Assembly (NCBI GenBank): GCA_017499595.2 | Contig: CM039009.1 | Coordinates: forward strand, 2,418,001-2,482,000 | Length of the DNA stretch: 64,000 bases | Source of the DNA: Psilocybe cubensis | Taxonomy: Eukaryota | Direction: 5' to 3' | Shown here: positions 415 to 60,831 of the stretch, piece by piece | How the letters are laid out: every line of letters begins with the position of its first letter | Numbering within the stretch: position 1 is the stretch's first letter | Notes under the pieces: generated by a model | Seen by the model: only the letters and a program-made list of their open reading frames with translations | What the model was told of the DNA's origin: nothing | Database searches by the model: none | Made by a program: the position numbers and the translations under genes

Positions 415-1615
415 TGCGAATGAGGGAGAATTGACGAAAAGAGTCGTTGCAATTTGAGATGGAAATGTCTCCTGGAGCGACTTTCCAATTTATACCATTC
501 AGGCGCTCATGTACGCTTGGTGTAAGATTCCAGATCTGTGTTTGTTCGAGCATCTTTAGTGTAACACAAGACTCTCGGCGATAGAGGAGTGCCGGACCAA
601 CGTCTTTTTAAACGATGTCGATACAATTTGACTTGCCATACGCTCCCCTGGTTTGATATAAAGTAAGCCGATTGATAAACGCCTGCACCTACATGATAGG
701 TGTTCCTTGATCTCGAGGGCTACTTACCGCATGTCGATCAATTTCCCCATAATGATGAAGGAGCACAAACATTACCGGAACCGCGTAGCCACTTAGGCAC
801 CAATGTAATGGTACAGGAACAAACACCAAGTTTATTTTACACTTTCAAAAACTTAAGACCCTTGCACGTAAACATGTCCCATCATTTTGGTATTACTTAA
901 CACAATTGTCACCACCTCGTGTGTAGTACAGGAGTACCGGACCATCAAATCTCCGAGTCTTTACGAGAAATCCGGATTCCATATTGGTGACAGAGAGTGG
1001 GAAAGTCAGTCATGCCCTGACCTGATCGCTCTAATATCCCAGAATGGATACCCCCGTATGGATGTGGGCGTTAAATTCTGCGGGAGAGCAGGTGTGTGTC
1101 CTGGGTTCGAGGCATACTGCGGTCAATGAATAACATCGGAATACATGTGTCTTCAGACAATGTTTCGACGTCCACTACACCATATTTTTATTAATTTTGC
1201 TGCTGTCGTCGTTTATTTTGTGCCTTAATGCTCTTTAGTTCACGTTGCTGTACCAAAATGTCTGCATTATGTGCCTCTTACCCTGGTATCTTCCATGCTC
1301 ACTTCAGTATGAATGGTTTTCGGTTTTGTAATTACGTGCTCACAGATAAACACTGACGCTGCGACGATGAATCGGAGACCCCTAATGTTTACATCATATC
1401 CGCATTAAAAAATAGCATTTCCAATGTTGAGCATGTACCATAAGAATTATGGGAAACGGAGAAGGCATTGGTTTTCGCAATCAGTTCAAATTGCACATTT
1501 TGGAAAACTGGAAAGACTTATGTCTCCATTAAAATTGATGAAAAGCGCTATGAATAGGGTACTAGGAAACTATTTAACGACGAGACATAGGTCAACGTCC
1601 GCCTAATATACGTGA

Positions 1616-2603
1616 CTACTTGGCGCGCACAATCTTCAACTGCAAGCTGCTAGGATCACGGACAACATTCCAGGTAGTTTCGTGAGGGAGTTGAGTAAGG
1701 TCTTGCCTAAACAACTCGTCCGTGTTGACATTTGCTGTCAAGATTTCGCTAGCTGTATCATCCACATATTGTCAGCCAAATCTTGTACGGTGATAGATAT
1801 GAATTAATGCTGTACTTACAATGATAGTCGCTGACCCCATAGATTCTCAATACGGGGGTGAGTTTTACAGCCAGAGTGGAATCGACACTGAAAAACGGGC
1901 ACTGTGAATGAAGACGTTCTGGGGGGTAAAGCCTCAAGTAGTAGCTTACCCAAGTCCGGTCCATTTAAAGATGGGTGCAACCGACTGATCCTTGCCCATG
2001 ATACCCTAATAAAATGTTCAAAACTCATTCTTCAAGTAGTGACATACTCAAGACTTACGAATGCAAGATCCGCTGGCTTTGCAGATTGGATTTTGCACTG
2101 AATGATTCCAGGAGTACCTACTCCTGGATGGGTAAGGTAATTATTTCCCTTGTTGTTGGTCATCAACGAGCAGACTTGGCCACCCTTTATAATAACATTT
2201 AGAGTGTTGTTAGAAAAGCAATATTCCTTCATACCTGGCATCTCTCAACGTTCAGGGCAGAGACTATGTTGGAATCATCGTCTTTCTGATATAGATGTTA
2301 GATTACGTTGAGTAAATAGGATTAAATTTTCCACTTGCCTGCGGAACGATAAACGCGGTGTCTGCAGTATATACCACGACTGCGGTGCTGATGTTAGAAG
2401 CACTGAATTGAAGGACCTCTGCCGAGATCAGGTTAGCATTAAAGCTAGTAAGTAGTGCGGGAACGCTTACTCCAGCAAACGGGGTACAAATCTGTAAAAA
2501 GTGTACCCTCTTTTGGGGGGTCGAACATAAGCATCAAGTCGATATCCTTTCCCAAGTTTTTGGAGACAAAAGTGAGCTTTCTGGCATTTCCTGTGATAGA
2601 CAT
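1616..2603 (-). CDS. Family paralog B, intact 7-exon gene, uncharacterised beta-rich protein
   Basis: MSITGNARKLTFVSKNLGKDIDLMLMFDPP...YPVCW|RVLQF...FIVPQ|KDDDSNIV...CQ|GGQVC...LAF|GIMGK...WTGLG|VDSTLAVKLTPVLRIYGVSDYH|SSEIL...KIVRAK*. Intron 2 (2286-2338) has a GC donor. Confidence 0.92.
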
Positions 2604-3437
2604 TTTGAAAGAGGAATTATATGGATAGTGGAGGTGTTTAGGATGATGTTTGTGGAAATATTCTCCTCAATTTATAGGCGTTCGTGTCGTGCCGCCTTTC
2701 TGCAGCGTGAGAGTCAGTGTCAGCAACTCAGGAGGGCCATCCGAAGGAGTAAACGCCCACACCCATACGGAGATATGTAACATGGCATCACGAATGATCG
2801 AATCAGGGGATCATTCATATTGCGTCGCGGAGTTGAAATGAAACTGCCCTGATCATTTAAGGAGAACATCGGTGATATGAAACGCCGAGTGTACGCCTGT
2901 AGGTGCGTTTGCGCTGTACTTGAGTAGTGGTAAATTGATTGCAGAGTACTAGCCTTGACTCCTGCGTTCGTCGATGGTACATCAGTGTCAATCTAGATCA
3001 TCTGTCTTGAATGATAACTTTGAAAATTCTCCGACGAGGACCACTCAGATTAGTCATGTAACTTATCAACTATGTCAAGTCAACAACTTCAACCTTATGC
3101 GACATATGCGCTTCCGCAAATCCTGGACAATGTTGTGATGCCATTTTGGTGATATTTATTGTTGTAAATGGTGTTGGAAGAACAGATTCGCTTAGTCTCT
3201 GAACGGTGGCAATTTGTGCTTATCATAGCATGGTACAAGTGGGAGGGTCCTCGGAATCCAAATTTGCAGGTACATATTGTTCCTGGAGGAACCTCGGGCG
3301 ATATACAATCTCCGAGGCATCGTCTGCTTACTATTAGAATCCACATGGAGTGTGTTAAAGGTAAAGTATAAAAGAGGAGAACATGACTGTGAAATCAATA
3401 CCCCAACTCTCCAGAGTCATAAATCGCATTTATAAAC

Positions 3438-4414
3438 ATGTCTGGAAACAATCGAAGACTCGAATTCGAATACTCAGACCTCCCAAAGTCATACCAGCTG
3501 ATGCTTATGTTTGAGCCTATGGCAGAAGGCAAAGTATACACCGAGATGTTCCCTACATGTTGGAGTAAGATATCTCTATATTGATATTGAAAATATTGCT
3601 GATGATACTTACAGAGGTTCTCAGGCTGATCAAAGAAGTTTCTGGGGTAGCCAAAGCAATTTATACATCGGATACTGGGTTCATGGTACCACAGGTAGCC
3701 CTATAGATATATTATGGTAAGAATAACGCCTTTCTGACATTTTTGTATAGACCGATTGCGGAAATATCATTTGCGCTGGTACTGCGCGCCCATGTGAGGT
3801 CCGTCTTTCATCAGATTTCTATAACCACCTGAACTAATTGAACTACCCAAGATGGGCCAATTATGTACTGTGATGACCGACAATGATGGAGACAACTACC
3901 TCGAGCAAGCTACAACCGGCGCAAAGGGAATCATCCAGTGCAAAGTCGACAGCTCACTCCCTGCCACCGTTGCATTTGTGTGTCACCGTCACTTTTGAAA
4001 CAGCATTTTATTGTGACTAACACATAATATAGGGAATCTTTAACACAGAAAAGACGGCCTTCGAGCCGTTGTTTACCTGGAGAGACATACCGTAAGCCAG
4101 TCTACACATCAACTTTTATTGATCAATTGCTGACATACTGCAACATGTAGGAAGGGAGACAAACTTTCGATCAAGGTTACCCCAGTTCTCAAGATCTACG
4201 CAGTCAGCAATTACCAAGGTTGGATAATGTATACTCTCGTAAATTAAACACAATTCTGACAACATCCCGCATAGAGACCGAGGTGGTCAGATCCGATGTT
4301 GTCAGCAACCTATTGTTTAGAGAGGACATACTCAATCTTCCCGCTGTATCAAGGTGGACCGTCTCAGTGGACAGTAATACCAAGTCCATTCAGATCGCTC
4401 GGGCCTTACAATGA
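3438..4414 (+). CDS. Family paralog C, intact 7-exon gene
   Basis: MSGNNRRLEFEYSDLPKSYQLMLMFEP...FPTCW|RVLRL...FMVPQ|TDCGNII...CE|MGQLC...VAF|GIFNTEKTAFEPLFTWRDIP|KGDKLSIKVTPVLKIYAV...|ETEVVRSD...IARALQ*; TATA-like GTATAAAA near 3367. Confidence 0.92.
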
Positions 4415-5074
4415 TTGTTTGACATTCCTATTACGTTGGATTATTACTTGTGGTTAAATAATCCCGAACAAATTACTTTTTATACACTATTTTACTCGAG
4501 TCATTTAATCTGCATGACTCTGCGAATTGATGTCTGAAAAGAAAGCTCGGTTCTTTTGTAGACTAATCTGCACCACGGTGGCATTCACAGATTGTCATTA
4601 AATTGACATTCCATATTACACTGACTTCGACATCAATTCAATGATGAAAACTATCGGGACCGATGGATCTAGAGAAATCACCTCCGTCCTATACAATGGA
4701 ACGTCAACTTGATGCATCGGCACAGAGAACGTTCTGGTGAAAAGCTATCTGTCATAATCAATAGCTTCCACGTTTCAAAGGCCATCAGAGATGGCACCAT
4801 TACCCGAAACTTTCGAACTCAGCAGTGTCGCGTTGACGTTGACGTTGAAGTCATCCCGACAGCGGAAGCACGTGTATCTTAGGCATTAGTGTATCTCCGT
4901 GCATACAAAAATTTGATCTGTAAAGGTTCTCCAATGTCAAGATCCCAATCTCGTATGACGGCAGTACAAGTATGCTATAAAACAAGCACATTCATGAAAG
5001 TGTTTTAACATTTTTCAGAACAACACCAATGCCTCTGCGCTCTCATACAAAAACCTGCATATTTTTTTTGAACA

Positions 5075-6082
5075 ATGTCTGCACCTGGCACAGTACGAAA
5101 CACGAAAAAGCTCAACTTCATGAGCAACCAGCTGTCTCGAGACGTGACTTTGGTGTTCATGTTCGCACCCATGTCAAATTTGGGCACGATGTTCTCAGAC
5201 CTTTTCCCAATCTGCTGGAGTAAGCGATGTTATTTTTTCATTGGTTCAAGTAATAACTTTGGTGGCGACTGTACTTAGAGGTCATGAAGTTCAGGAAGGG
5301 GTCGATTGATAAAGGTCTTGCGGTGTACACGGCAGACACAGGTATTGTGTATTTTTCCTTGAATTGTACTCGATGGCGTGCTGATCGATATCGACGAACG
5401 GTTTACACCAGGTTGAAAACGGAAATATTGTGCTTCCCAGCGGTGTTCGTCGCTGTCATGTAATTGCCATCTTCTTTGTATCGAGTAATATTACACTGAA
5501 AATGGACGTGTAGAACGGCCAGCGCTGCGAACTTCTAACTAATGAGGGAGAAAACTACCTCGAGGGGCCTGCAAAAGCTCCTAATCCACACAATATGATA
5601 GAATGTAATGTCAAGACCGCTTTTCCTTCTACACTTGGATTTGTGCGTAAGCTGTGACTGCATTCTGAGTGCGTCTTAGAGTTGACGTGTATGTGGATTG
5701 TAGGGCTTGTTTGACGAGTCTGGGACAAAGATGGAACCGATTTTACATGGAAGGATCTTCCGTACGTCATCCTCTATTGTGATCAGCCGTGATGCGCTAA
5801 CTGGTGCGATATTTTATCAGAAAAAGGCAAATTCTTTCGCTGGCGCTTACACCTCTTATCAGAGTATATGCTGTTACCGACATGACAGGTTTGTTCTTCA
5901 ATATAAATCCCACTTGTACACGTATTCAGATCTTCGTAGTAAACGAAGTGGTCAAAGCTGAAATGGAAAGCCCGGCGCTCCTCGACGCATATCTCGTGGC
6001 GCTTCCTACGACGTCAGGGTGGCTGGTGTATATTGAGGAAAACACGAACGCCGTAAAGATCAAAAGGATTGAAAGCTCTTAG
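5075..6082 (+). pseudogene. Family paralog D, 7 exons with a 1-bp frameshift in exon 5
   Basis: All seven exons are recognisable. Exon 5 reads CCG ATT TTA CAT GG where paralogs need ATT TTT ACA TGG (PIFTW), i.e. one T is missing in the run at 5741-5744. This could be a homopolymer sequencing error. Confidence 0.8.
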
Positions 6083-6409
6083 CTAGTAGTCGTTACCTCC
6101 AGTTGTTGACGTGGCACCATGTCCGTCGTTTAAGCGTAATATATATCAGTTTCAACCTCCGCAATTCCTGGTTGGAGTTTGAGTGAATGACGTGCACGGA
6201 ATTGGCAGGATGAAGTGGAGTGCCTTTTCTTGTCTGCTGTGATGAGTCGATATGGAAATGTCTTTTTATCTCGTGCCGGGAAGTGGTTAATTTCACACTG
6301 GCAGTCCAGTCGGTGTGACAATAATGCGTTTTCTGGACCGATATATTTTTGTTTACACAGATCTGGGGTACATTGAATTTATGAAAGAATGGAGCCATAA
6401 TGAGGTATA

Positions 6410-7302
6410 CACGGGGGCCAAAGTCCAGCACGGTAGAATTTCAACCGTGCCCGTCGCGGTTGAGATTCGAGTGAACAAAGGCGGGCCAGATTTCCGTCGG
6501 AGATTTAAATATTTAATCAGCGTAAGACTTGTTATTCTCGACATGACTTCACCTCATATTTTGCTGTTCAAAAGAGTCATGGTGAATATTATGCAAAACT
6601 CCAAAGCTTAACAGATAAATATGGAGCTAATACATATACTTAAGTTTGTCTCATGCTTCCTATTAGTATGTAGATAGCTTAATTTGGAGGCCTATTACGC
6701 AATAACTACCTTAATTACACATACTGCTCTGCGACAACTATCTGTGAGCCGAAAGCTTGATCATATCCTGTGAAACTATATGATATTAGTTAGGCAGCTT
6801 GTGTCATAGTTTAAATGTATTTTGGAACTTTATTATGCTTTGAAATGGCACCGACAATTATACTGAAAAATATGATAAAATAAAATCAATTGAGGATCAA
6901 TTGCTCTAGCAGTATTTTTGCCAGTAAAATAATTATATAGAGTGTGTTTAGAATATTATCAAGGTGTACTACAGTTGGAATTGAGGTTACTGAGATACAT
7001 CCACTCCTAATTACTTTTAAATGCAGAAGCAATAATATGCCACTGCTAATTGGAACACTATCACCAATCCATTGGCACTGTGGGCTTTAAAACTCAAATC
7101 AAACTCTTAGAGCATATTTATACTAAAATTTACATGAAGAAAATTAAGGTGTACATTGTTGCTACATCTAGAAAATATAATACACACAATTTTGTTGGCA
7201 AAGTGTGCTTGTGGAATGACATCAACTTGATTACGTGGTCCCAAAATCTCAACCGTGACGGGCATGGTTGAATTTTGACCGTGCTGGACTTTGCCTCCTG
7301 TG
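6410..7302. mobile_element. Non-autonomous TIR element (MITE, CACTA-like termini), 893 bp
   Basis: ~58-bp imperfect TIRs (CACGGGGGCCAAAGTCCAGCACGG... / ...CCGTGCTGGACTTTGCCTCCTGTG), 3-bp TSD ATA (6407-6409, 7303-7305), AT-rich non-coding interior. Confidence 0.85.
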
Positions 7303-7819
7303 ATATGGGAACAAATTGAAAAGCTTCTGATGGCATCGGACAAACCTGCAAATGGTTGGGAGTCATAAGCATCATCCCTCTACATCCAAAAGTATAACAA
7401 TGTGGGGGCAAGTGATGCAGAAACCTGATAACATGAAAGATAAAAGGAGAATTTAAACACCCTGACGACGTAAGGCTAGATTGAAACCTAACAAGAGCTC
7501 CCATTGCAGGTAATACTTAAAGTATGTGACAGTATATACTTGTTTGTATAGTGGACTCAGTGCAGGGTGTCGGAAGTCATTCATCCATAGCAAGATTGTT
7601 TTCTACACAGCCGTCCGGTTGTCGAGGTCTGAACTAAGTCACGGGGACTGCAGTCAAACCGGAGGCAAACTAGGGACAAACCCAGGAATGCTACCCATTG
7701 GAAATTCCAAGTCTGGGTGACTTGGTGTTGACCCATGTGGTCATGGGTTTATTGCATGTCCTATGTGGCAGACTTCGGTTTTAAACACGGAATTTTTGGA
7801 GTCTGCAAAGACTTGGAAA

Positions 7820-8033: not shown

Positions 8034-8182
8034 AAATACCGTATTGTTTTGCATGTGGTGTGTTGCCTAGCAATCACTCGGCATACCTGCCGGACGATGT
8101 CTGCATAACGCCTCGTGATGTCACATTGGTTCGTGCGTGGGAATAATAAACGGTCTAGCCCTCTCCAGGCCTCAAGAAATCA

Positions 8183-9372: not shown

Positions 9373-9394
9373 TCAGTCATGAATGCATGACTTG

Positions 9395-10725: not shown

Positions 10726-11770
10726 ATGTCCACCAACGCTAGATCTGAAGAAGAAAGACAACTTTCTTTTGTTTTCAATGATCTGAAAAGGGATATCAAC
10801 TTAGTACTCATACTCTCTTCACCTGGAAATTTTAAGGACATAGACCCTCTCTGTTGGAGTTCGTGATTGCTTGTTTACGGTTTTGAATGAGTGCTCACCA
10901 TACAAATCTCTATAGAAGTTGTGAACCTCCCTGCTGGAATGATAGGCCTAGCAAAAGTTACGTACAGCGGCGTAACCGCTTTTTCTATTCCCAATGCAAG
11001 TTTAAAGTCACAACTTGACAGCATGAACATGTGCTTACATATACTCTTTACCGCCAATTCCATTGACAGGACGATACAGGACTTGTTGATGCTGAATCCC
11101 CCACGGTTTCTTGCCAGGTGTGCACGGGATAGTTCTTAATATATGAGCGGTTCTCATTACCATTTTTATCCAGGTTGGCCAGCGGTGCACCATCAAGACG
11201 GATGACCAACGAAAAAACTATCTTGTGCCTGCTGTTTACGGTCAACCTAAAGTCATCACATGCCACTTCGACACAAGTTCCCCAGCTGACGTCGTATTTG
11301 TATGTCTCTCTCCTTTCCATTTATGTCATGTATTCAGCTTGGGGTAACCATGTTTCATTACAGGGGCTAATTGACAGTGGCGGACAGTCGCCTTTGAGCC
11401 CGATTTCAAAGTAGAAATCTATCATGTGTGTACTAATGTCCAATAGACATTTTTGAAGAACAACCAATATTCTGACCTTCCATTCGTAGGCCAGGAAATG
11501 ATCTGTCTCTGAGATTCACTCCAATCTTAAGTATTTATGCCGTTGATGGTTATAATGGTGAGCCAATTTTGTACAATACCATACACACATGACTCAAAGA
11601 GGAGCCACTGGTGTCGACAACCAACAGCTGGAGATGTAATCACCTCAAATGTAAGGGACTCGGAATTGTTACTCCATCAAGATCTTGGATATCTTCCTCC
11701 AAAGACAAAATGGGAGGTCCTTTTTGACGAGAACAGCGGCGCTATCAAAATTGAACGTCAAAGGAACTAA
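10726..11770 (+). pseudogene. Family paralog E, divergent copy with an in-frame nonsense codon
   Basis: Seven exons recognisable (MSTNARSEEERQLSF...PLCW ... KIERQRN*). The conserved exon-5 Trp is TAG at 11412-11414. Intron 2 (10996-11069) has a GC donor. Confidence 0.85.
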
Positions 11771-11816
11771 TAGCGCCCGTGCGCTGTCTATGCAGACCGA
11801 CATTATGGCATTTACC

Positions 11817-11828
11817 CTCGTCGTTAAA
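11817..11828 (+). promoter_or_regulatory. Conserved 3'-UTR motif CTCGTCGTTAAA (paralog E copy; representative of about 8 copies)
   Basis: The same or near-identical 12-mer lies 26-46 nt downstream of the stop codon, in sense orientation, in paralogs B, C, D, E, F, H, K and L. Function unknown. Confidence 0.6.
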
Positions 11829-12032
11829 CATTTTATAAATCCGGTTTTCTTTTGTGTCTCAATTAAATAATGATAGCAACCTATCCTGAATCACACAACA
11901 ACTGTAAGATCTCCTCACTCCAGGCAAATGTGTGAAAAGTAAAACATATATGTTGTAATATTGAGACAAAATACACGAGGTACAGGTTTAACGACGAGGT
12001 GTAGAACAACTGCGTCCTTTGAACAACTCCGT

Positions 12033-13006
12033 TTATGAACGGTTAATCTTGATTGCGTTGCTCGCTGGGTCAATAGACACAATCCATTCGGTAAAGTTTG
12101 GAAGAGCGATGAGATTCTCTTCGAAGAGAAGAGGTGAGCGGATTTCTCCTCGCACAAGCTCGGTTTCTGTAATGCAAACACTGTTTAAGAATATGACAAA
12201 AATAATTGAAGAGACCAACCTTGATAATCTGTCATGCCGTAGATCCTCAATTTAGGGGTGAGCTGTACGGCAAGGGTGCTTCCCACACTGAAGTGTAATG
12301 TCAATAGAAGACACCAATTTTGGTCGGATAGAGTGCATACCCGACTCCATCCCATTTCATGACGGGTTCAATTTTGTTCCCTGCCTTGTTAAAGAGTCCC
12401 TACTCAAGACGGCTTAGAATTGACAGTAGCATTAGCAGTACAGTATAGCGGGTGACGTACAAAGGCAACCTCAGACGGGCGATGAGTCTTAAATTCGCAA
12501 AGTATAACACCGGGATCTCCAGCAACAGCGGGATTGAGGAAGTTATCGCCTTCGTCGTTGGTCTCCATGACACACATTTGGCCAGTCTGATATTAGACTC
12601 GTAAGAAGGGTGTGTTGAAGGAGTGGTGTAGACCATACCTGGCATCGTTGTGCGTTGGAGGCGGCAACAAGGTTCCCGGTGTCCCTCTTTGTGATTATTC
12701 AAAATGAAGCGCTTCAAGCAAGGAAATGAGGCATATATCAACACACCTGGGGAACCAAGAGCCCGCTGTCCGCGGTGTACTCAACTCTAGCTGCACTGAT
12801 TCCACTAGGGGTGAATTTGAGAACCTCTGTAAAGGTGATGAGGTTCTGATACACCTATATGTGAGCGACCGCGACGTACTCCAGCAGACAGGGAACAAGT
12901 CCTTGTATAAAGTGCCATTCTTTGGTGGTTCGAACATGAGCAGCAGGTTGACGTCCCTGCCCAAGTCACTGGAGGTGAAGTTGAGGCTTCTTGAATTTCC
13001 AGACAT
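12033..13006 (-). CDS. Family paralog F, intact 7-exon gene
   Basis: MSGNSRSLNFTSSDLGRDVNLLLMFEPPKNGTLYKDLFPVCW|RVLKFTPSG...VPQ|RDTGNLVAASNAQRCQ|TGQMC...VAF|GLFNKAGNKIEPVMKWDGVG|VGSTLAVQLTPKLRIYGMTDYQ|ETELVRGEIRSPLLFEENLIALP...KINRS*. Confidence 0.93.
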
Positions 13007-14576: not shown

Positions 14577-15598
14577 ATGACAGAAATCACCTTTGCTAGC
14601 ATCGATATTGCCAGCGACTTCAGAGCGCTCAATTTTATATCCAGTGATCTTGGAGAACACGTCTATCTTCTGCTCGTTTTTGATGCACCAAACGGTGGAA
14701 CCCTATATAAAGATTTATTCCCTGTTTGTTGGAGTAAGACGTCGCCCTCTAACTCACTCTGAACGATGGCACTGATGTAGTACATTAGAGGTACTGTCCT
14801 TTAGCCAATCTGGTATAAACGCAGCCACTGTAGAGTATACAGCCGATACCGGATTTCTTGTGCCACAAGTTGCGTCATTGTTGTGTTGTGCAGCCTGTTT
14901 CTCACCCACTTTCCCTCTAGACGAGCACAGGAAACCTGGTCTCCGCCTCAAACGCACAAAGATGCCAGGTAGTGTACAACCAATCTTTCGTCATCGGGAT
15001 GGTGTTCACATCATCTATAAATGTTTAGATCGGACAAATATGCACGCTTAAGACCAATGATTCCAATGGTCAAAACTACCTTACCTCACCAGAGGAGGGT
15101 GATCCAGACGTCATACAGTGCCGCATGATGACCGCTACCGCAGCAGATCTCGGTGTGGTAGGTAGAAGCCATTGATTATCCTGATATCCATTAAATCACT
15201 AACCATCCGGAGTAGGGGCTTATTACGAAGGCTGGCACGAAGATTGAACCCCTTTTTCTGTGGAATGATATAGGGTACGGTTTTTTAAAAATCTGAAAGC
15301 TTCTCTAACTTAATGCTCCACACAATAGGAGGACCAGCACCCTTGCCATCAAGCTGAAACCGATGCTCAAGATATATGCTGTATCCGACGCCACAGGTAT
15401 AGCAGTTGCCTTCAATTTTTGTTGTCTTTCTCTGATGTTAAGCGTTATGCAGATTTCGTTGGAGGAAAACTGATTAAAAGCGCCTTCCGCACAGCCCCGG
15501 TACTCGAAATAAATTTAATCTCCCTCACGACTTTCACAGAGTGGCAGGTCTATATTAATCCCAGTACAAAAGCGATAGAGATAAAGCAGATCGACTAG
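14577..15598 (+). CDS. Family paralog G, intact 7-exon gene
   Basis: MTEITFASIDIASDFRALNFISSDLGEHVYLLLVFDAP...FPVCW|RVLSF...VPQ|TSTGNLVSASNAQRCQ|IGQIC...|GLITKAGTKIEPLFLWNDIG|RTSTLAIKLKPMLKIYAV...|...EWQVYINPSTKAIEIKQID*. Confidence 0.92.
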
Positions 15599-18832: not shown

Positions 18833-19421
18833 ACTGGCGCAAATTTCACATAGGATGATTCCTCTGCGTTTTGTTTGGAGATTTTGAAAAAATTAAAGAA
18901 ACATATCTCGCGTACTTCGAATATATTACCAAATAAAAGTCAAAGTTGGGAATACATTTATTATTGCTTGACATTGGCAAAATACGGTCATGTAAACATG
19001 CGGTAGGTGTGCAGGGACATCAATTACACACGCCGCGATCCTACTCTTAATTAAGAGCAACAAGGAGGTGCGTATCGGCGCTCCTTGAAAATTCACTAGT
19101 GATTTCTTACCAATTAGAAGACGACGCCACTGTGCATCAAGGTGCGTTGGTATCAGATTTTGCGTCGTTATCAACTGTATCCAAAACATGTCAATTCAAT
19201 AAACTCAAAAATGTCCTTCGGAAATGTGTGGCTGAGTAGGAAATGGTACAATCAAACAGATTCAAATCATTTTCTAAACTATACTGGGTCCGAGTGAGCA
19301 TGGAAAACAATGAGCAAGTTTGATGTCAGAAATTGAGCGTGTGTAAATTTCGACATTGACGAGATACATGGTACAGGTTTAACGAGGAGGTCAATTTCAA
19401 ACTCCCTCGAGCAATATACGT

Positions 19422-20411
19422 CTATCCGCGAGCAATTTCAACAGCCTTGCTCGCGGGGTTGATAGACACAATCCACTCTGAGAAATTGGGAAGGGCGATG
19501 AGGTTCTCCTCGAACAGAAGTGGTGAACGGATTTCTCCACGGACAAGTTCGGTTTCTATGGCACATAAAAATACACCGTTAACGGACGAATGATATCATC
19601 AAATCATAGAAAACAAACCTTGATAGTCTGATATAGCGTATATCTTCAACTTCGGGGTTAGCTGGACGGCGAGGGTGCTCCCAACACTGTAAGTAAGCAA
19701 CAATGCAAAATCTGTTAGTGCACGTTGGGCGGTCTGAAGAAATGTATTCGCACCCAACACCGTCCCATTTCAATACAGGCTCAATCTTATTTCCGGTCTT
19801 GTTAAAGAATCCCTGTAGGATCGTGTGGATAAGAATCTGACATTATATCTGTACAGCACGCTTTATGAACTTACAAAGGCGACATCTGCTGGGCGATTAG
19901 TCTGGAAATCGCAGAGAATAACACCAGGGTCTCCATTTACGGCGGGGTTGAGGTAGTTATCTCCTGCATCGTTAGTATTCATAACGCATAGTTGGCCAGT
20001 CTGATAATCCATTGATGAGCTGCACAACCCTCTGTAAAATTGTAACTGGCGTACTTGGCAACGTTGGGCATTGGAAGCGGCAACAAGGTTTCCTGTGTCC
20101 CTCTTGATATAATCATTAACACTGTGACTATATAATACACAGAATCTAAACGTACCTGGGGAACCAGAAGACCGGTGTCGGCAGTGTATTCCACTCTGGC
20201 TGCGCTGATTCCGGAGGGGGTGAACTTAAGAACCTCTGTACAAATAATGAGCCATGACGTATTCATTGACAAGAAAGGACGTACTCCAGCAGACAGGGAA
20301 CAAGTCCTTGTACAATGTACCATTGCTGGGAGGCTCGAACATGAGCATAAGATTAACGTCTTTGCCCAGATCACTGGATGTGAAGTTGAGGCTTCTGGAG
20401 TTTCCGGACAT
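19422..20411 (-). CDS. Family paralog H, intact 7-exon gene (213 aa), close relative of F
   Basis: MSGNSRSLNFTSSDLGKDVNLMLMFEPPSNGTLYKDLFPVCW ... ETELVRGEIRSPLLFEENLIALPNFSEWIVSINPASKAVEIARG*; six GT-AG introns, phases 1,0,0,0,2,1. Confidence 0.93.
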
Positions 20412-23400: not shown

Positions 23401-23476
23401 CCAATCATTTCATCCATTCCAGCATTCATCTGTTTTAGTACCGTGCTGAACATTCACAAGCAACAACATACCGGCC

Positions 23477-25720: not shown

Positions 25721-26711
25721 CTATGCACGCTCAATAGTGACTTCTCCGGTCCCACTGTCAATGGACACAACCCACTGAGAGGAGCTAGGGAGATCGTCGA
25801 GGTCCTGTTCAAGGATAACAGTCGATCCTATTTTTCCTCGAATTATTTGTTTCTCTATACATGCGTTCATGAAAGGTGTGAATTAGATGTTCCATAGCAG
25901 CATATTGTAATATACTGACCGTGATAATCGTGCTCTGCGAATACCTTCAACTTGGGCGTAAATTTAAGGGAAACTGTATTGCTAACGCTATAATTCAGGT
26001 TCGAAACAAGGACCGTCAGTGGTTTAATAAACTATGGGTTTGTAGTAATCATACCCGACTTTATTCCAAAACATGAGTGGTTCAACCGTGCTTCGGGTTC
26101 CACTGAGAGTGCCCTTGCGTAAACATGCTAAGCCTACATATCATGAGTCTGTAGCAATCTTGAAACGTACAAAGCCGACGCTCGACGGCTGACTGGTATT
26201 AATCTCGCATTGCATCGAATTTGGATTTCCCTCAACCGCTGGGTTGAGAAAGTTCATGCCTTCATCGTCAGTCTCCATAACGCACTTTCCCCCAATCTAA
26301 AAAAGACCATAAGTGTTACAGATAACCAAAGAGTTTAATTTTTAAAATTTGCACATCAATGCGTTTGTAGTCGATAGAAAAAACATTATCCCCGCCAGCT
26401 GTCTTTTATGCCTATGTCAATACTACAGATAAAAGATTGCAACAGATTTTAACACACCTGAGGGACAAAAAATGCGCCTTCTGCGGTATAACGGACAGAG
26501 GCTTGGCTAGCTCCAGCTGCACTGAAAGTGAGAACCTCTGCAGGACAGAGATATGAATAGTTATCTGGATCGATATAAGATAAACGAACGTACTCCAGGC
26601 CACTGGAAATAAGGACTGGTACAGGGAACCATCGTTGTGTGGTTCGAAAACGAGTACCAAGGTGACATCTCTGCCTAATTCGTTGGAGGAGAAGTCGAGA
26701 GTTTTGGACAT
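25721..26711 (-). CDS. Family paralog I, intact 7-exon gene
   Basis: MSKTLDFSSNELGRDVTLVLVFEP...FPVAW|RVLTF...VPQ|TAGGDNVFSIDYKRID|IGGKC...VGF|GTLSG...WNKVG|VSNTVSLKFTPKLKVFAEHDYH|EKQIIRG...VTIERA*. Exon 3 needs the AAG acceptor, which gives the conserved 16-codon length. Confidence 0.88.
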
Positions 26712-29456: not shown

Positions 29457-30116
29457 CTTATGTTATTCCATATCATGATTGGATCAACATCTTCCCCATC
29501 CCCTTTGTATAACCCCTTGATAACAGAGTCAGAACCCGGCATAATCTTCAAACAAAAACCGTCAAGAAACACTTACGAACGCAACGTCTGCCTCTTCCGA
29601 AACGTCAAACTTGCAGCTGATTATATCAGCATTTGCACCCACGCTGGGTGCGCTGAGGACGTTCCCGCCACTTTCGCTAGTGGTCATAACACACGTTTGA
29701 CCAGTCTAACAAATCTACTGTGAGCTGTAAAGGGGGGATATACAAGACTGGCAAGTTTGTACCTTGATGCGCTGTGCGTTGACAGAAGAAATCAGGTTCT
29801 TGTCGCTTTTCTGTAATGATTGTATCAACGACAATCCCCTTTCAAACATGCTGGCTAATGGAGACAAACCTTCGGGATGATGAGCACGCCGATGTTGCTG
29901 AATTGTACTGTATGGTGAACTTTTCCAGTTGGTTCAAACTTGAGAACCTCTGCAAAGAATTTATAGGTCTTATGCGCGTCAAAATAAGGTAGATGACATA
30001 CTCCAGCAGATAGGGGTTGGGGGATTGTGCAGTGTGTCGTAGTCAGCTAGGTCTACCATGAGCAATAATGTGATATCTTTCCCAAGATCATTGCTGCAGA
30101 TGGAGAAAGACTCCAT
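29457..30116 (-). pseudogene. Family paralog J: exons 1-5 only, 5' end split by a 10.9-kb insertion
   Basis: MESFSICSNDLGKDITLLLMVD...PICW|RVLKFEPTG...IPK|KSDKNLISSVNAQRIK|TGQTC...VAF|GLYKGDGEDVDPIMIWNNI. Exons 6-7 are not recognisable downstream. The first codons and upstream region lie at 41045 onward. Confidence 0.85.
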
Positions 30117-37154: not shown

Positions 37155-37235
37155 GCTCATCCACAAGTCAAACTTACAAATTAAGACAAAAAAAATGAGG
37201 ACGAGAACACAAGTTTATTTCGAACAAAAATTTGA

Positions 37236-40207: not shown

Positions 40208-42243
40208 GGGTAAAACAGTGCGGAGAAAAGTGCATTGTCTATACTACGTCAATAAATATATTAACCGTAAGCCGATAGACGCCCGACGTAGGGGAAGAAC
40301 AAATTGGTATGTGTGAGAAACGATCATGAATCAGAAAATCAAATTCAAATAGTACAGAACGCCCAGAACCCAAGAACGCGTAATTATTTCTATTTGAACT
40401 CTGATTGATGAAGCTACCGATATCAAGGAACGTGTGTGCCTGCACAGTTCTATTTCCAACCTTTCAGACCCATAGTTCAAAGAGTGCATTTGTTCCATCT
40501 CTAAGTATTAGTACAATATATAAGCATGTTGGCTAGACGGTTCCACATGGTTTTAAAAATTAAACAACAACGCAAAAAAGTGAATTGAGTAGGACTATTG
40601 TTGTTGGGTATAATTAATTTTATGGAAACGCACATTCACATTGCGATCAAAACAAATCAAAAACAACCTTTAAAGTAACCAATGGTAAAAAGAAGTCGTA
40701 GAATGAATTGGAAAGGGGTTGCTTAGGGGGTCCGGTGACCGCTTAAGGAAAATACCGATAGCGGTAACAACATTGATCACATCAATAATATTTTGATGGG
40801 GACAATTGGCGAGGACATTTTTGCTCGCTGGGTTGTGGGGATAAAAGAACTCATCTTTACTTACGTAAAGACTCGTAAACCCTGAACGCACTGACACACC
40901 CTGACCAATTTATAGATCATTGGAAACATGCACTGACATTGCACTGACATCACTGCAGTTTGCACTGACATTACTGCGGTATGTACTGACATGCACTGAC
41001 CGCACTGACGTTGCACTGACATTTTCCAGTGCCCCCATTACGGCGGCTATGTTGATATTTGTGAGTACGTTTGGCGTTGTAAAAAGAGTTATGGTGTTGT
41101 TGCTCAGTAAATTCGTTCTTGTTATATAGACAATTATGCCTTACATAAATTGACATAAATGTATCTACGCTCAAGCTCATCGGCTTCCATCACCATCAGA
41201 TAATCAAAGCACATTGCCTGCTAAGACTCATTGCAAGAAGTCAGAAGTCAGATATCATATTGCCCATGCGTTTTTTATCTCTGCAGGAAGACTAAAAGCG
41301 CGCCAGAAGGTTATTTGTGCTTTACTCTCGGATATGCGATTGGTTTACAAGCAAACCGGAACTTAATAACATTATGTTCAATATGGTCTTACATACCCAC
41401 ACCGTACCGAATAGTCGCTTCCATATTTGATTATCTTTCTTTTCACCGGCTTCCTTGAGAATGGTAAGACCTCGAGCGCGGCCGAATAGCAACTAGAAAT
41501 GTACAATCCATGCGCAGCCGAATAGCAGCTAGACAATCATACTTTATCAGTGGCGAAGTATTACCCTTTATGGCAATTATAGTCTTGTATCACACGCAGG
41601 GGCTACAGTCTCACTCCCATGTCGTGGCAGCTGTGTGACGTGTAGAGATGTCAGCCGTGCAGGAGTCCTGGGCCGTGAGCCTTGTCACATTGGGATGGAA
41701 TCCACATCTGGAAAGTTGAAAGCTATTTGAGGGTACGTTAGAGAGGCAGGAATTCAACCAGTCTCACCAGCAAAGAGAGAAACGTAGTGTCAATAACTAT
41801 CTAAAGCATAGTCGGCAGCACGACCTTTACCTATACTGAATCATTTTGAAGATATCTTCTCACACCTCCCTTTACCCAAACCACAGCTCTAATGCGTATG
41901 GATATCATGCATGACAAGCGGCTCTATATATCCTTACCCTACTCCTTTTTATCCCTCCCATTTTTCATATTTGTTGTCCTGTTCTCCCCTTGTGTCATTA
42001 TTTGTGGTATACTGCCTTCAATATCATCAAGAGACAAGCCACAAGAGTTTAGTAAGCCCCGGTGTCTGTAATCCAAAATGATTGAGTTGAAGTGCACATT
42101 TGAATTGAAAGGCGATAAAAACAATCAATTTATATTTTTTAATCTTTTATGTAAACAAGACGATACGAAACAAAAGTGATATTTATGAAATTAGTTGAAT
42201 GCATTTTTAACGACGCCACCTTAAGCGTCGGAACTGAACGAGT

Positions 42244-43865
42244 TTAATTAGCAGGATCGATCCTGACTTCTCCGGTGGCAACGTCAATGCTGACAATCCA
42301 GTCGGAATTGGGCTGAAGACCGATGAGATTTTCATCGAACAAGACGGGGGATTCAATGTCAGCCCTTATTACATCAGTGGCTATGATTGCAAAATTAGCA
42401 TGAACTTGATCAATCTATACAGTAAAGTAGGCCAACTTTTGTAGCCGGAAACCGCATATATCTTCAATTTGGGGGTAAGCTGAACTGAAAGTGTATAGTT
42501 ATTTCTGTGCGATCCGTTAGATGGAGGAGCAATATACAGGTAAATTGACGTACGCAACGTTGTCCCACAAAAGAGCAGGCTCTATCTTGAACCCGGTGTC
42601 ATTAAAAAAACCCTTGAGGAAGTAAATTAGCATTCATTAGTTAAACATAAATAAGTCATACAATTCCCAAGCTTGCAGGCCGCTCGGTGAGATTTGTGCA
42701 TTGCAAAACACCTTTAACTCCAGGAACCGGGGAAGTAATGTATCTGTGAGTGTCTTCAACCTTGAGGGTACATTTTTCTCCAGTCTGCATGCATGGAGCT
42801 AGTCGGATATTTGGGGATACTTTGAAATTGTACATTACATACCTGACAGTGCTGAGCGTTAGAGGCAGATACACGATTCCCCCCTTGGAACTAGTATTTA
42901 CGGCTTTAGACGGTTAGTCAAATTCCCAATTCAAAGGGTACTAACCGAAGGTACAAAGAATCCGGTGTCTGCACTGTATGTGACTGAGGCGTTGCATGTC
43001 CCCGTTCCAGAGAATGATATAACCTCTGTAACTTGATCAGTATTGTAATTTATATTCCATTCTGCAGCAGGGGCTCACTCCAAGCGAGAGGAAACAAGTC
43101 GACATAGACACGGCGGGCAAAAGTGCTGACTAGTCAGCCTGGGAGTTGGTCTGACCAGTCACCTGACCAGCGTGCTGACTAGTCACCTGACTAGTCATGT
43201 AGCTGTCACGCATTTATTGTCACGCTGGTAAGTTTCTGTAATTCCGCTCATTGATTGTAGAACAGAAGATCTCTTTTCTATGCCCCAGACTTACATTATT
43301 TGCTTCTTTCATGAATCTTGTTAAAGATATCTAGCATGCATCGACACAATTTTGGTACAGCATCTATTAATTGTCCATTTGTTTGAATAATGACCGAATT
43401 TCAACCAAACACAAGAAATGTCCAATTCATTCATTGCTTTTCTTCAGTGAGATTGCTTCAGAAGACAATGGTTTATTCCCATTTAATCTTATGTTACTGA
43501 ACTCATTTACCAATACTAACCAGCGTGACAACATTTGTGTGACCTCTCCTGACTGGTCAGTTGATTCGTCACGGAACGCGTCACGATATGGTCAGGTGAC
43601 TGGTCAGACCAACTCCCAGGCTGACTAGTCAGCACTTTTGCCCGCCGTGAGAGCTTGCCGACCTTAGGAGGTTCAAACATGAGGAGGAGGTCGATTTGCG
43701 TGCCAAGATCTTTGGCATAGAATTCAAGTGTCCTTGTGTTGCCACAGGTGGCTTCGCGGTCAACGAATTGGTTAAGAGTCCTAGAGCACTTTAACAACAC
43801 CGCCTTTCTTTGGGAATGAATGTCACTTACGGGGTGGATGCCGATTCTACGTAAACCTCTGCCAT
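42244..43865 (-). pseudogene. Family paralog K, otherwise intact but interrupted by a MITE; probable extra 5' exon
   Basis: MAEVYVESASTP|TLNQFVDREATCGNTRTLEFYAKDLGTQIDLLLMFEPPKVGKL[MITE]YVDLFPLAW|RVISF...|...|TTDVIRADIESPVLFDENL...RIDPAN*. All remaining exons are open. Confidence 0.88.
43109..43649. mobile_element. MITE (CACG termini), 541 bp, inserted in a coding exon of paralog K
   Basis: ~60-bp TIRs CACGGCGGGCAAAAGTGCTGACTAGTCAGCCTGGGAG... with no mismatch seen; 3-bp TSD AGA (43106-43108, 43650-43652). Confidence 0.93.
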
Positions 43866-56150: not shown

Positions 56151-59100
56151 CTATAATGAGTGATGATTACAGGTGATGTTAAGTTTGCTTAGCATTGAAA
56201 TCGTGGAAGGAAATGTCAGATATTTGTCCACATATCGGCGTGCTCGTTTAGCGATTTCGGGTTGCTCACGGCTGACAATGAGTTCCAGTTCCTTGAATTT
56301 GGCATTGAGAGAGATCCCTTCCTCGTGTTTCCCCAGAGCGCAGTTGAATGTGCTCTCCAGATAGAGTGCACGTGCAAGCGACGGGAATGAGCTGCGTCTC
56401 TTTGCCGTCCTTGCCTCATAGTATACCCGCACCTTTTGGATTGCTTCCAACGCGTCTGAAACAAGGCCCTTGGAAGCTTTGTGCATAGCATGGACTTCCA
56501 AGGCATTGATATACCTTGGTTGATGATATGCCTCTTCTGAGTCTTCGAGAGATTGAATCGACTTTAATAGTCTTTCTGAAGTTTGAGCCGCCTCGATATC
56601 ATTACCCACGTCGCCGAGAACATGAGATAGAAAGAGATAAATATCGCCTCTTTCAGAATTTCCGCATCCGTCTCCACATGAGAGTGATAATTGCAGGGCT
56701 TCTGATATATAACCTAGTGCAGCATCGTAGTCACCCGTGTTTCTGGATGCCAAAGCACAATGCTGAAGACAGGATATGTACTCGTGATGGTGCTCTTCAA
56801 AGTGCATGCGAGCAAAAGTCTCGTATTTCTTGCTCGCTATGGAGGCTTCCGCGTATCGACCGAGATCACCGAGGATAACAACTCGTTGGTTCATGGCCAT
56901 TATGAGCTCTTCATATATGTCATCGTTTGTTGGATGACAGCTTCCGATTTCAATGGCCTTGTCAAGAGCGTCCAATGGCGTCGGGATATCTTTACGTCCT
57001 GGAGCACTCATCACATGGAGCACATTGGAATACGAAGTGAGGGTTTTGATGTAACATACAACCTCATCTGGGGCCTCAGCTGGATGACGATTGAACCAAG
57101 AAAGACCATGCTGAATGGATGTTAATGCATCCTCTAAGCGATCCAACGACATAAGGACCTTTGTATGATGGTTGATGCTGTCGATGTACACCATAGAGTA
57201 TTTGTCTGGGTACTGCTCCGCCAACCTCTGAGCGTGTTCCAGACAGGTCTGGGTCCGTTCTAGGCGAATGCTTTGTTCCAGATCAACGACCACTGTCAGT
57301 TTGAAGTTCAATGTCAAGCAATCGACGTAGTGAGAAGCCTGAGTTGGCTTGGATTTCATAGTTACTGAAAAGAACCTGAGCGCTTCTCCCCCGTATTGGA
57401 ATGCTTTGGCGTATTCCTTGTTATGGAATTGGATGTGAACAAGTCGGTTGAGAACCACTCCGACAGTGATTGGGGTGTGATATACATTCTCGTCCGTGGT
57501 GGAAACCAACATACGGAGTTGCAGGAGGCACTCTTGAAGCTCTCTACTTGCCTCGGGGTACATTCCAGCTTGGAAATAATTCATTCCATTGTCGAAATAC
57601 TGCTCTGCCACCAGGCCAGAAGGTCCTCTCGACGTGTCTCGGAGGAGTGATGCTAGCTGAGTCCCATATGTTGCAGCTTCTTCATATCTTGCGAGGCTGC
57701 TCAACGTCGTGACCAGTGAGAAAAGTGCCTCCGAGCGAAACACATGATCCTCAAAGGTATCTGCATAAGCTAGAGTAGATATCTCTTTCCAGTCGGATAT
57801 GGCGGCGTCGTATTGTTTGAGATTTTTCAAGAATTGCGCCTCTATCTTGAGGGCAGTACACAGTTCGCCCCGAAAATCCCTGTCTTCGCTTTGCTTATGA
57901 AATACCCTGAGTTCTTTCACACAGTTCTGTGCATACTCTAGATATTTATACTCGTCCAGGAGATTGAGAGACATGACTTCGTCGCTGCAAAGTTGAGAGA
58001 GAAAGACGGAGATTTGATGTGTGCCGTTGCATTGATCGCATAGCGTATGCTGGCTTCCCTGGAGTAGCATGTCCAGGGCCTTGACAGCAGTCTTGAATAC
58101 CCGCTCGAATTGGTGGGTGCTCCAGAAAAACATACTTGAATGGATCATAGCATGGACGTAGCGACATAAAGCACCGTCTTCACGAGAACGCAGGCTGAGC
58201 GCCGTTGTTTCCGTAATTGGGGAGGAAACGTTACCTTCGGACACATCCTGGTCCTTGGTAACGATGTTCTCGTAGACAGTAATGGTATCGTTGGCAAAGT
58301 TCGATGATGCCTCGAGTTTATCCTTTGCAAGCATGATGCAGGACAGTTGTAGAAGCAATGTCCCAAGCAATGCATTCACTTCCGCGTCGTTAGATGGGTC
58401 ACCAGTCAGTAACTTCCTACCGATGAATATGGCGTCATTGATGGTATCTTCTGCGTTGCTGAGATTATCACTCCCAGAATAGAGGTAAATCTCGGATAGA
58501 AGTCGTAAACTCGCTGGAAGGTAGCGGTGGTATATGGTTGAATCTGTTTCCGCCCACGCTCTACACAAATTGACTGCCCAGACTGCAATAGTGATGGCCT
58601 GTGAGTAAAGTCCGAGTCGACATAACCCATAGCAGAGATTGGCGATATTCTGAGAGCTAGACTGGAATGATGCAGGTTTACGATGTCCAGACAAGCTTGC
58701 CTGCACATCAAGTGCTAATGCAATAACTTGTCTCTCGATAAGTTTCCTGTCAAACATGTTGCAAAACACCGTGTTAGAGGTTGGTGGTAGATGTAATAGC
58801 TGTGATGGCGGGAATGCATCGAGTGAAAATGACAATCCTTGGCCAGAGAACATTTGGTTCAAATATGTATTGATGTTGTTGAGTTGATCGAGAAGGAAAA
58901 CATAGGAGATATCATCTGGGCTGAGCGTATGAGACTGTGTAGATATCTGAGTTGACACTGTTATCTCCGAGCCTATGTTGTCGGCCGTGGTAGTCAGCTC
59001 AGTGCTAACTACTGAGGTATCGACAACGTCGCTGATGTTTAATTTGCGAGCTACTGCCTCAACCATTCTCTCGGTTCTCGCAAGAGAAGAAGTCTGTTTG

Positions 59101-59660
59101 TATCAAAAGTCGTAAGGGGCATCAGCACAAACAGCTCTCTCAAACTGAATACGAAAATACCTGAAAGACGTCATGATAGCTTTCCATCTCATGTCGAATC
59201 TGGTTCAGTCGTCGGTTCAACTCTTTGCCACGCATCCAAGTCCGAATCCTGTTCCGAATCCTCTCAAACCTATTCGACGAATCTTCAGAGGGTACCAGCT
59301 CAAGACAGTTGATACGCGAAGCATCTAGGTTTCTTAGAGTTTTTGCGTCAGTGAGACTGCCGAATCTGGAAGTAACCATTGCATTACTCTATCAAATGAA
59401 ACAGTGTAGCACCTTGGGCTACTTCTTCGCTGGGCAGAACCGCTTTCATTTCATTTACTGAGTCTTCAATTAATTTCGCGAGCCTCTCTAAGTCTTCACG
59501 ATTTCCCCTAGCCTGTGCGTTAATATAACAATAAGAAATGAGCTGTGAAGTGATAATGTGCAGATGATAGAAGACACACAGCAACGTATGATTGATGTAG
59601 AGCCATAATCTCCTTGAAGGAAGTTGACAGCACACCGTAGCCGATGCTGACTGGGTCCAT
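56151..59660 (-). CDS. MLKL-like/four-helix N-terminal domain plus long TPR-like solenoid protein (~1,100 aa, 4 exons)
   Basis: MDPVSIGYGVLSTSFKEIMALHQSYVA|ARGNREDLERLAKLIEDS...LIE|NLDASRINC...RIRTWMRGKELNRRLNQIRHEMESYHDVFQ|TSSLARTERMVEAV... joins the 971-aa ORF with TPR-like repeats (LGLYSQA, LARYEEA, LDRLEDA, LGRYAEA, LGKHEEG). No Walker A motif seen. Confidence 0.85.
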
Positions 59661-60831
59661 TTCTTTCAGTAAAATAATGGTGGCACGCAGTTGTAGAAGG
59701 TAGGGTTAAACGAGACAGTAGTATCCATGATGCTCAGACTCAAGCCTTTTTATAAGACCAGCATGGATATCATGGCGTTGTTGTGCGACGGACTCGACCC
59801 GATTCTGCGCAGCAACGATTATGAGGTATGACAGGTTCTGAGACAACTATATTGTGTGTAGTCAAGAATAGTTTGTGAAGGTGTTGTAAATTGGGCGCCC
59901 TCTAGGGGCTTCCTGGTAACGTTACGTTGAACCCTGTGTTCTTATGTGGTCCGTGTCCATTTCATACATTTCAGAGATAGAAAGGCCTATGTCAATGACC
60001 TAAAATACACAGGTTAGCAAAACAACACTGAAGACGCTGAGTACTCCCCTGGGCCAACCAAAATATGGTGAGTATAACTTCAAGTTCAACAGATAATAGC
60101 AAACCTCGCAACACGAGATACTACGAGGAGGCTCCGATGATGGTCAATCTTCGATACTACGAGTGTGACTTGTTGTTAGAGTTGACTGTTGGGACGTGTG
60201 ATATTCCAAAGATGTCTGCCGTCATGCCTTGTTTATTATATTCGATATACTATACCAACCTGTGACACCGCGTATCCTTTACTGAACCTTTTCGGAACAA
60301 GGTTCTCGTCTTCGCTTGTTTTGGACTGAGTTTGAAATATTCAACATTTTGTGATTCCATCAGTTCTGCAGGTCTGCCGTAAAATTATGTAACACATCTT
60401 TTGAAAACCACTTTAAAATATCAGCTTATTCATTAAGCACATTTGAAGTCAGAGATCTGAGAAAGAGGATATCAAGGCCAAAAAGCGCTCACAAAGTGCA
60501 CACTACAAGCCAAGGCGAATAAGAAATTTATTCAATGCACTGTATACTGTTTTCAATCGCAATCTAGGCAAGTTTAATTCATATGAAAATGGCTTACCAC
60601 GTTCGAATATCTTTACTTGAGGCAATATTGGTTGAAGAAGTCTCTCACGGTCGAATGATAACTGTATCCACTCATTTGTTCCTACCGGGTATGGGATAAA
60701 AGTGTATAGCGTGCAATCCGTGTACCCGGGTACGTACCCGGCACATCACTGAATCAAAGAATACTATTGACGTAATGTTAGGGAAATGTTTAACGACGAG
60801 ACTCGCGTCAACGTCCACCGGATATTTGTGA

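Follow-up and report, generated by a model that had tools for sequence, protein, structure and literature searches.

Small hairpins conserved within single gene families have been described in fungal mRNAs by comparative screens. They include the rps0 3′ untranslated region (3′UTR) motif and the SDC motif (PMC5640933), as well as 3′UTR structures of thioredoxin, RING-finger, thioesterase, GLY1 and MET13 genes (PMC8216456). According to its published description, the second screen started from five ascomycete query genomes, left out Basidiomycota and yielded motifs found mostly as one copy per genome. Mushroom-forming fungi have hardly been surveyed for structured elements that control mRNAs. 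Here we analyzed a 64,000-nt stretch of Psilocybe cubensis contig CM039009.1 (hereafter the window; G000:C12:2418001-2482000 of a genome of 46.6 Mb and 21 contigs), which carries paralogs A to M of an uncharacterised gene family. Shortly past the stop codon, many of these genes carry an element of ~28 nt with the form (Y)GACG-[10-17 nt]-CGUCG-UUAAA, which is very probably a selected, structured RNA element of some kind. Like the motifs of the fungal screens as they are described, it is a small conserved hairpin of one gene family, seen by covariation, and the readers of those motifs are mostly unknown. It differs from them in its genes and its length and in being present in 20 copies in one agaric genome; this difference is judged on the published descriptions, and the supplementary alignments could bear on a match.

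A preliminary description of the window had reported a 12-nt motif at eight sites, 26-46 nt past the stop codon. All eight are present with the letters and coordinates given, each on the sense strand of its paralog, at 31 nt (B), 32 nt (C), 39 nt (D), 46 nt (E), 34 nt (F), 32 nt (H), 26 nt (K) and 31 nt (L) from the stop, and paralogs G, I and M carry no intact copy, as claimed. The eight copies are not fully independent of one another, since B is closely related to L and F to H. A loose count of the motif in the window, allowing three mismatches, is at chance (43 versus a mean of 47), so the signal is positional. Genome-wide, the exact 12-mer occurs 13 times (versus 5 for the control), with four occurrences in the window. 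Two further exact copies lie on contig C11 directly behind paralog stops and are the first confirmation beyond the window sample.

For the whole genome, a search with exon 1 of the family gave 26 loci, whose surroundings were then searched with a last-exon profile. We kept 28 gene ends, namely those with a last-exon match of E <0.05 at the gene end plus the second piece of the frameshifted M. Weak matches (E >0.4) and one partial match at L019:9835 were dropped. Paralog J and a second C6 copy, in which no last exon was found, were not counted; 28 is therefore a lower bound, covering these neighbourhoods only. Within 130 nt past the stop of these 28 ends, the true conserved core is a 10-mer, CGTCGTTAAA, and not the 12-mer: it is exact in 15 genes, present with at most one mismatch in 19 and with at most two in 20. 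Shuffled controls give a mean of 0.09 and a maximum of 2 at one mismatch or fewer, and in a control stretch 170-297 nt downstream the best shared 10-mer reaches 4 of 28. The preliminary description had proposed a family-wide cis element under selection that co-regulates a cluster. The first part is supported, with unconserved flanks and a motif that is not common in random DNA. The word cluster proved too narrow, since three other contigs also carry copies: the element is kept in 20 of the 28 paralogs on four contigs (12 of the 20 outside the window), and carriers are present in every major branch of the paralog tree. Retention of CpGs against CpG decay had been offered as an argument for selection; the decay exists but is mild (observed/expected ratio 0.85 across the window and 0.77 for introns and coding sequence), and the argument is weak.

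A 5′ partner arm, overlooked in the first reading, is conserved as well as the core. In every carrier a (Y)GACG block, the reverse complement of CGTC(G), lies 10-17 nt upstream of the core and 10-42 nt past the stop, and the 12-nt motif makes up one side of a small hairpin, its 3′ arm with the tail. The spacer between the arms peaks at 13 nt (nine of 20 copies). The stem never starts less than 10 nt from the stop, which is about the reach of a terminating ribosome, and in most copies it starts 10-17 nt past it. A stem so placed might stimulate stop-codon readthrough or belong to an unrecognised coding extension. Against this, the core occurs in all three frames (10, 7 and 3 of the 20 copies), no peptide is common to the extensions, the stop codon is followed at once by another stop in four genes, and neither the stop nor its context is constant. 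P. cyanescens protein records show no read-through trace of the element. A readthrough structure was rejected for lack of a fixed stop context and of a conserved in-frame extension, and we consider this explanation extremely unlikely.

The element is conserved above the neighbouring neutral sequence, as a structured 3′UTR cis element would be. In 116 paralog pairs whose proteins are less than 45% identical, identity over the 14 core bases is 0.90-0.92, and the core holds at ~90% where protein identity ranges from 26 to 45%. In the same distant pairs, identity is 0.29-0.33 at fourfold sites and 0.27-0.30 in the upstream flank. The 13-nt spacer is 0.37 identical, near background, between two arms at 0.9, and the mean intron identity of 0.55 is the level that shuffled introns reach among the pairs listed. 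The preliminary claim that introns and the remaining UTRs do not align between distant paralogs agrees with identities near background. Neutral inheritance from recent duplication, or gene conversion, would fit the close pairs C5a/b and B/L, which have flanks in common; for distant pairs it is refuted by the contrast between the arms and the silent sites, introns, flanks and spacer, and as a general explanation it is almost certainly wrong. Upstream of the genes, the only shared promoter motif among 23 regions was a TATA box, in at best 8 of 23.

We tabulated the stem in 19 genes, leaving out C5b because it almost duplicates C5a. Of the 76 cells for the four inner pairs, 73 are paired. Pair 2 is G-C in 16 genes, U.G in one and A-C in two; pair 3 is A-U in all 19; pair 4 is C-G in 17, U-A in one and G-C in one. 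The outer pair is C-G in eight genes, U.G in six and G-G in five. All changes in the 3′ arm preserve pairing, namely GAGG/CCUC in H, GAUG/CAUC in U5 and UACG/UGUG in C, and the double changes recorded are C-G to G-C, C-G to U-A, G-C to U.G and G-C to C-G. In three cases the changes on both sides must have arisen on one branch, with a chance of 0.0024 in a branch-length simulation (events were counted by our own parsimony reading and placed by branch length). A fourth double change, GACG/CGUC to GACC/GGUC, lies in C2b at the position matching its sister C2a, in a copy that the motif filter had rejected since its tail is lost. Compensatory base changes are therefore present, as few events in one species, and the linear 12-nt site of the preliminary description gives way to a hairpin plus tail.

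Nine genes have a 13-nt spacer; in these the stem continues through a 2x1 internal loop into a 3-bp inner stem, with letters that differ between genes (GAC/GUC, GGU/GCC, AGU/ACU and AGC/GCU). This inner stem pairs in 22 of 27 cells (permutation p = 0.00025), and its letters switch within the sister pairs A/C11a and U6/N. Across 13 aligned copies, five of eight pairs show a double change, which none of 500 shuffles equalled, and slid pairing registers score worse than the proposed one. The repeated CGU of the 3′ arm permits a second register, GACG or AACG with CGUU, which is favoured in N and C11a; it would hide the tail and, in the improbable ligand-dependent reading considered below, could act as the switch. 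Four genes (U3, U5, C and C2a) had suggested a pseudoknot in which the loop pairs with sequence further downstream; it was rejected, as the genes' own pairs were no better than cross-gene pairs (19 genes; p = 0.34, 0.49 and 0.51). A covariance model was trained on 13 copies, with E, F, H, K, C2a and C5a/b held out. Its top eight matches in the window are the eight reported sites, of which the four held-out ones score weakly (E 0.018-3). It also recovers C5a/b and C2a, and the held-out copies rank directly after the training copies. The family further provides a natural mutant series: intact elements, compensated stems (H, U5 and C), a stem that has lost its tail (C2b), and tails whose stem is gone (M and U2, in which the 3′ arm is deleted and TTAA retained).

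The arms also form an inverted repeat in DNA, GACG/CGTC, and their preferred spacing could suit a dimeric transcription or termination factor bound downstream of the genes. Such a DNA site is, in our judgement, very unlikely: the spacer varies from 10 to 17 nt, symmetric double changes would ruin both half-sites and yet H is strongly transcribed in run X4, the inner stem covaries, and C pairs only via G.U on the sense strand. The constant sense orientation, the wobble pairs, the variable spacing and the symmetric compensation all argue for RNA rather than a DNA dimer site. The invariant bases fall within a seed-like 8-mer, UCGUUAAA, as would be expected if a small RNA starting with UUUAACGACG targeted the element and the hairpin merely gated access, and a 5′ U would suit a fungal small RNA. 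Covariation argues against the plain small-RNA site considered in the preliminary description, and a small-RNA target leaves both it and the conserved 5′ arm unexplained. The complementarity spans only ~10 nt, no source locus was identified and other genomic matches are at chance level; we therefore regard this explanation as highly improbable.

Several observations weigh against a selected hairpin. None of nine sense-strand regions was more stable than its shuffles (z −1.5 to +0.7), spacers overall were no more structured than shuffled spacers (mean z −0.17), and spacers of 10-11 nt were unstructured. RNAalifold found no structure in an automatic alignment of the 20 copies, where the 5′ arms are out of register, and on the 13 copies it recovered solely the 4-bp stem. 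The outer pair is G-G in five of the 19 genes, as noted above, the A-C mismatches in the stem (3) are not much rarer than G.U (8), and the arm alignment of F and H is not unique. The double changes are few, the structure was derived from the same sequences being tested, and neither the shuffle nor the permutation tests take relatedness into account. The element is absent from seven paralogs whose frames are full-length (G, I, U1, U2, U4, C2b and C6a), and four of the eight carriers in the window are broken in this assembly (D, E, K and L), with B, C, F and H open. The evidence also comes from one species. A metagenome scan gave two loci (L052 and L053) of one distant homolog, whose introns lie at other positions and whose C-terminus is apparently extended. 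This homolog has no clear copy of the element, and the covariance model found none there; CACGTCGTTCAT lies ~150 nt behind the usual stop position, with no matching arm at the usual spacing.

For one gene the element could be placed in RNA. In run X4, which we guessed to be RNA, a 715-nt contig of depth 1131 covers H from 20426 to 19364, with six splice joints, all introns removed and no mismatch across the element. The element is thus inside the spliced mRNA of H, on contig-level evidence from one run, and for this paralog the motif does lie within the transcript, as had been supposed. Run X4 covered only H among the seven paralogs examined and gives no evidence about the other six; run X5 covered no paralog and says nothing on their expression.

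The contig over H stops 14 nt beyond the tail and accounts for all depth in its bin. This stop is a weak hint on the 3′ end, as it comes from one run and contigs cannot show ends; at its 5′ end the contig also stops well short of the TATA box. An end at this place would suit a family-specific 3′-end helper, in which the stem positions the AUUAAA-like GUUAAA or brings in a processing factor just ahead of the cleavage site, and so would the U-rich YAUUU tendency after the tail. In the basidiomycete Cryptococcus, the poly(A) signal is described as AUGHAH, ~20 nt before the cleavage site (PMC3990503), and such a signal occurs within 60 nt downstream in only four of the 20 element-bearing genes, a scarcity that also speaks for the helper. 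Like AUGHAH as described there, the element lies in the 3′UTR near the likely 3′ end of H. Unlike it, the element is structured and confined to one family, its GUUAAA tail does not match AUGHAH, and H and K carry a separate AUGHAH directly after the tail; in H this is the AUGUAU at the contig end, which fits the Cryptococcus signal. We consider a role as 3′-end helper unlikely, also because CGTCGTTAAA is not enriched genome-wide (95 matches versus 120 for the control).

When the 5′ arm is added, 14 of 17 genome-wide matches to CGTCGTTAAA lie behind family genes, and the three non-family matches all begin AACG. The stricter GACG-N8-24-CGTCGTTAAA is found behind family genes in 13 of 13 cases. 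Within this genome the full pattern is confined to this family, and it is thus neither a general 3′-end signal nor, by exact patterns, a regulon of unrelated genes. The general 3′-processing signal suggested in the preliminary description is accordingly unlikely. A relaxed pattern gave 43 matches versus 13 in controls; 14 were in the family, and 14 of the 29 others were copies of three repeats. None of 19 non-family loci inspected showed the family arrangement, and several lie in long open frames. A looser pattern showed no excess (56 matches versus 82 in controls), nor did covariant patterns (four matches each, one family). A repeat at nine places on C2, C8, C9, C11 and C12, among them L055 and L056, carries GACG-N10-CGTCGTTCAA, one mismatch from the element. 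This likeness is probably due to chance; at L056 the repeat lies in a long open frame on the opposite strand. Searches of viral contigs, prokaryote genomes and plasmids found no relative.

Confinement to one family is also what would be seen if the encoded protein bound the hairpins of its own family, perhaps depending on a small molecule. The protein has ~213 aa and an all-beta predicted structure (pLDDT 95); by this model it is a RhiA-like, two-winged beta-sandwich of ~210 aa. Its whole-length matches among Atlas predicted structures are mostly bacterial clusters (TM 0.69-0.77), one of them named RhiA_N PF27136. Pfam and NCBIfam searches gave no match to the protein, although these libraries may lack PF27136, and no related solved structure was found in the PDB (best Z 7.5, rmsd 3.3, 101 aligned). 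Homologs with a named source occur in Agaricales, Boletales, Polyporales, Cantharellales and other groups, and one is an amoebozoan transcript; P. cyanescens has at least 13 homolog records. Among the sequence records looked up, no homolog was named as bacterial. Hairpins of one family have often been proposed to be autoregulatory in the fungal screens as described (PMC5640933, PMC8216456), and a bacterial protein of RhiA-like fold is reported to bind small metabolites (PMC13490719). However, most paralogs are acidic (pI 5.1 for F and 4.9 for H), the conserved basic columns occur in carriers and non-carriers alike, no known RNA-binding fold is similar to the model, and restriction to one family follows equally from plain descent. 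Autoregulation therefore seems improbable. An equally improbable extension is that the RhiA-like protein is both small-molecule binder and hairpin reader, so that binding of the ligand would switch how stable or how well translated the family mRNAs are. If true, it would be a metabolite-sensing feedback in mushrooms resembling that of the iron-responsive element and aconitase, on a fold not known for RNA binding.

The reading we favour, with confidence that is evenly balanced, is that a separate RNA-binding protein reads the hairpin and sets mRNA stability or translation. The 3′UTR would fold into a stem-loop with a 4-5 bp stem, GACG/CGUC, and a single-stranded tail, the stem often being lengthened by the 2x1 internal loop and the 3-bp inner stem. 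Once folded, the stem would offer its 3′ strand, together with the GUUAAA tail, to an RNA-binding protein distinct from the family's own product, and the bound protein would set the stability or translation of the family mRNAs. Two features point to a protein reader: the sequence itself (the A-U pair, G-U-U and the final AA) is held as well as the pairing, and the loop is free while the hairpin alone is marginally stable.

The copies in the window lie behind genes in various states of preservation. Six introns interrupt every full-length copy of the family, in identical or almost identical places. Paralog A (34..414, minus strand) is represented by its 5′ exons, as the gene continues to the left of the window, where its element lies (G000:C12:2417408-2417434). 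Paralog B (1616..2603, minus strand, seven exons) carries its element at 1573..1600 (minus strand), with GGACG at 1600-1596, a 13-nt spacer with inner stem GAC/GTC, and CGTCG-TTAAA at 1582-1573. The element of C (gene 3438..4414, plus strand, seven exons; element 4431..4458, plus strand) reads TTACG ... TGTGG-TTAAA; all five stem positions pair, three as G.U, and against its sister C11c it shows the G-C to U.G double change. Paralog D (5075..6082, plus strand) is frameshifted in this assembly and has TGACG, a 12-nt spacer and CGTCG-TTTAA at 6107..6133 (plus strand). The contigs of two other runs differ at its break, so the damage may be recent. The block of four genes A, B, C and D is duplicated in order and strands between window positions 1-6200 and C11:232000-240000 (L024), with sister proteins 63-90% identical and fourfold sites at ~0.6.

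In this assembly, paralog E (10726..11770, plus strand) reads TAG in frame where a Trp is conserved; its element at 11798..11828 (plus strand) consists of CGACA, a 16-nt spacer and CGTCG-TTAAA, with the innermost pair broken. It faces the element of F, 158 nt away, at 11987..12017 (minus strand; GGACG, 16-nt spacer, CGTCG-TTAAA). F itself (12033..13006, minus strand, seven exons) encodes 213 aa (record P0003). H (19422..20411, minus strand; 213 aa, record P0004), whose six introns are spliced in run X4, carries CGAGG, a 17-nt spacer and CCTCG-TTAAA at 19378..19409 (minus strand), the C-G to G-C double change. The open frames of G (14577..15598, plus strand) and I (25721..26711, minus strand) are the ones without the element, and of J (29460..30116, minus strand, approximate limits) only the 5′ part is present. 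K (42244..43750, minus strand, 5′ limit approximate) has its element at 42206..42230 (minus strand), where CGACG and CGTCG-TTAAA flank a 10-nt spacer that extends the stem. Its exon 1 is split by a 541-nt insertion (43109-43649) whose perfect inverted ends are 61 nt long and begin with CACGG; a 3-bp target duplication, TCT, is apparent, and the insertion looks like a non-autonomous CACTA/CMC-type element. Of L (60834..61060, minus strand) and M (61472..61852, plus strand), both frameshifted, only the last two and last three exons remain, respectively. The element of the broken L at 60789..60816 (minus strand) has GGACG, a 13-nt spacer with a GAC/GTC stem and GCGA loop, and CGTCG-TTAAA; the remnant in the broken M at 61886..61907 (plus strand) keeps the 5′ arm and TTAAA, with the 3′ arm deleted in alignment to C11d and D. 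The frameshift in D, the in-frame TAG in E and the 5′-truncated, frameshifted and back-to-back L and M show ongoing birth and death in the family.

Other features of the window include two insertions with inverted ends, at 6407-7302 (896 nt) and 8171-10074 (~1904 nt), which are skipped in contigs of X1 and X3 and are therefore polymorphic mobile elements. A perfect 1371-nt inverted duplication (34385-35755 and 45957-47327) encloses 10.2 kb including paralog K. It is rich in GCACTGACAT-type repeats, and a related copy at 30120-30600 adjoins the start of paralog J. A small intron-containing gene lies under spliced X4 contigs at 17970-18710 (plus strand), and its first exon has no Pfam match. The intronless open frame at 23450-24112 (plus strand) has a hydrophobic start and a DUF5648 domain (E 5e-20). 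On the minus strand, an open frame at 50016-51671 carries a DNA_pol_A_exo1 3′-5′ exonuclease domain (E 1e-11), and a 983-codon open frame at 56151-59102 contains TPR repeats.

At the level of the protein, a 2026 paper describes a bacterial family that resembles RhiA and binds plant metabolites (PMC13490719). As described there, RhiA of Rhizobium leguminosarum and PSMB of Pectobacterium share with the host protein a length of ~210 aa and an all-beta fold. The host genes differ in having six introns; no sequence-level link was obtained.

At the level of the RNA, Rfam 15 gave no match at the gathering threshold in the window. In E-value mode, there were three weak matches far below threshold in 11700-12100 and three weak matches in L024, none over its four elements. 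Our literature search, which did not reach most subscription papers, found no description of the element. The preQ1-I riboswitch and the pistol ribozyme are H-type pseudoknots in which a 5-bp stem is followed by an A-rich strand. In the element, too, a stem of 5 bp closes a loop of 10-13 nt and is followed at once by a UUAAA-like strand; unlike in those RNAs, its loop is unconserved, downstream pairing is at chance, and it has no Rfam match.

Stem and tail can be tested separately through the natural mutant series. The hairpin can serve as bait for the putative binding protein and offers a first way into a family that is uncharacterised and occurs across Agaricomycetes. The 3′UTR of H might also serve as a fungal expression part, since H is strongly transcribed in one run. 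More generally, paralog expansions within a single genome can expose RNA elements missed by cross-species screens.

The iron-responsive element and the histone 3′ stem-loop are short, marginally stable UTR hairpins with fixed bases that are read by proteins in several mRNAs. The element shows no sequence likeness to either and has no Rfam match; its loop is free, and its fixed bases lie in the 3′ strand and tail. Judged from its sequence, it belongs to no catalogued RNA family and would work like these known UTR hairpins.

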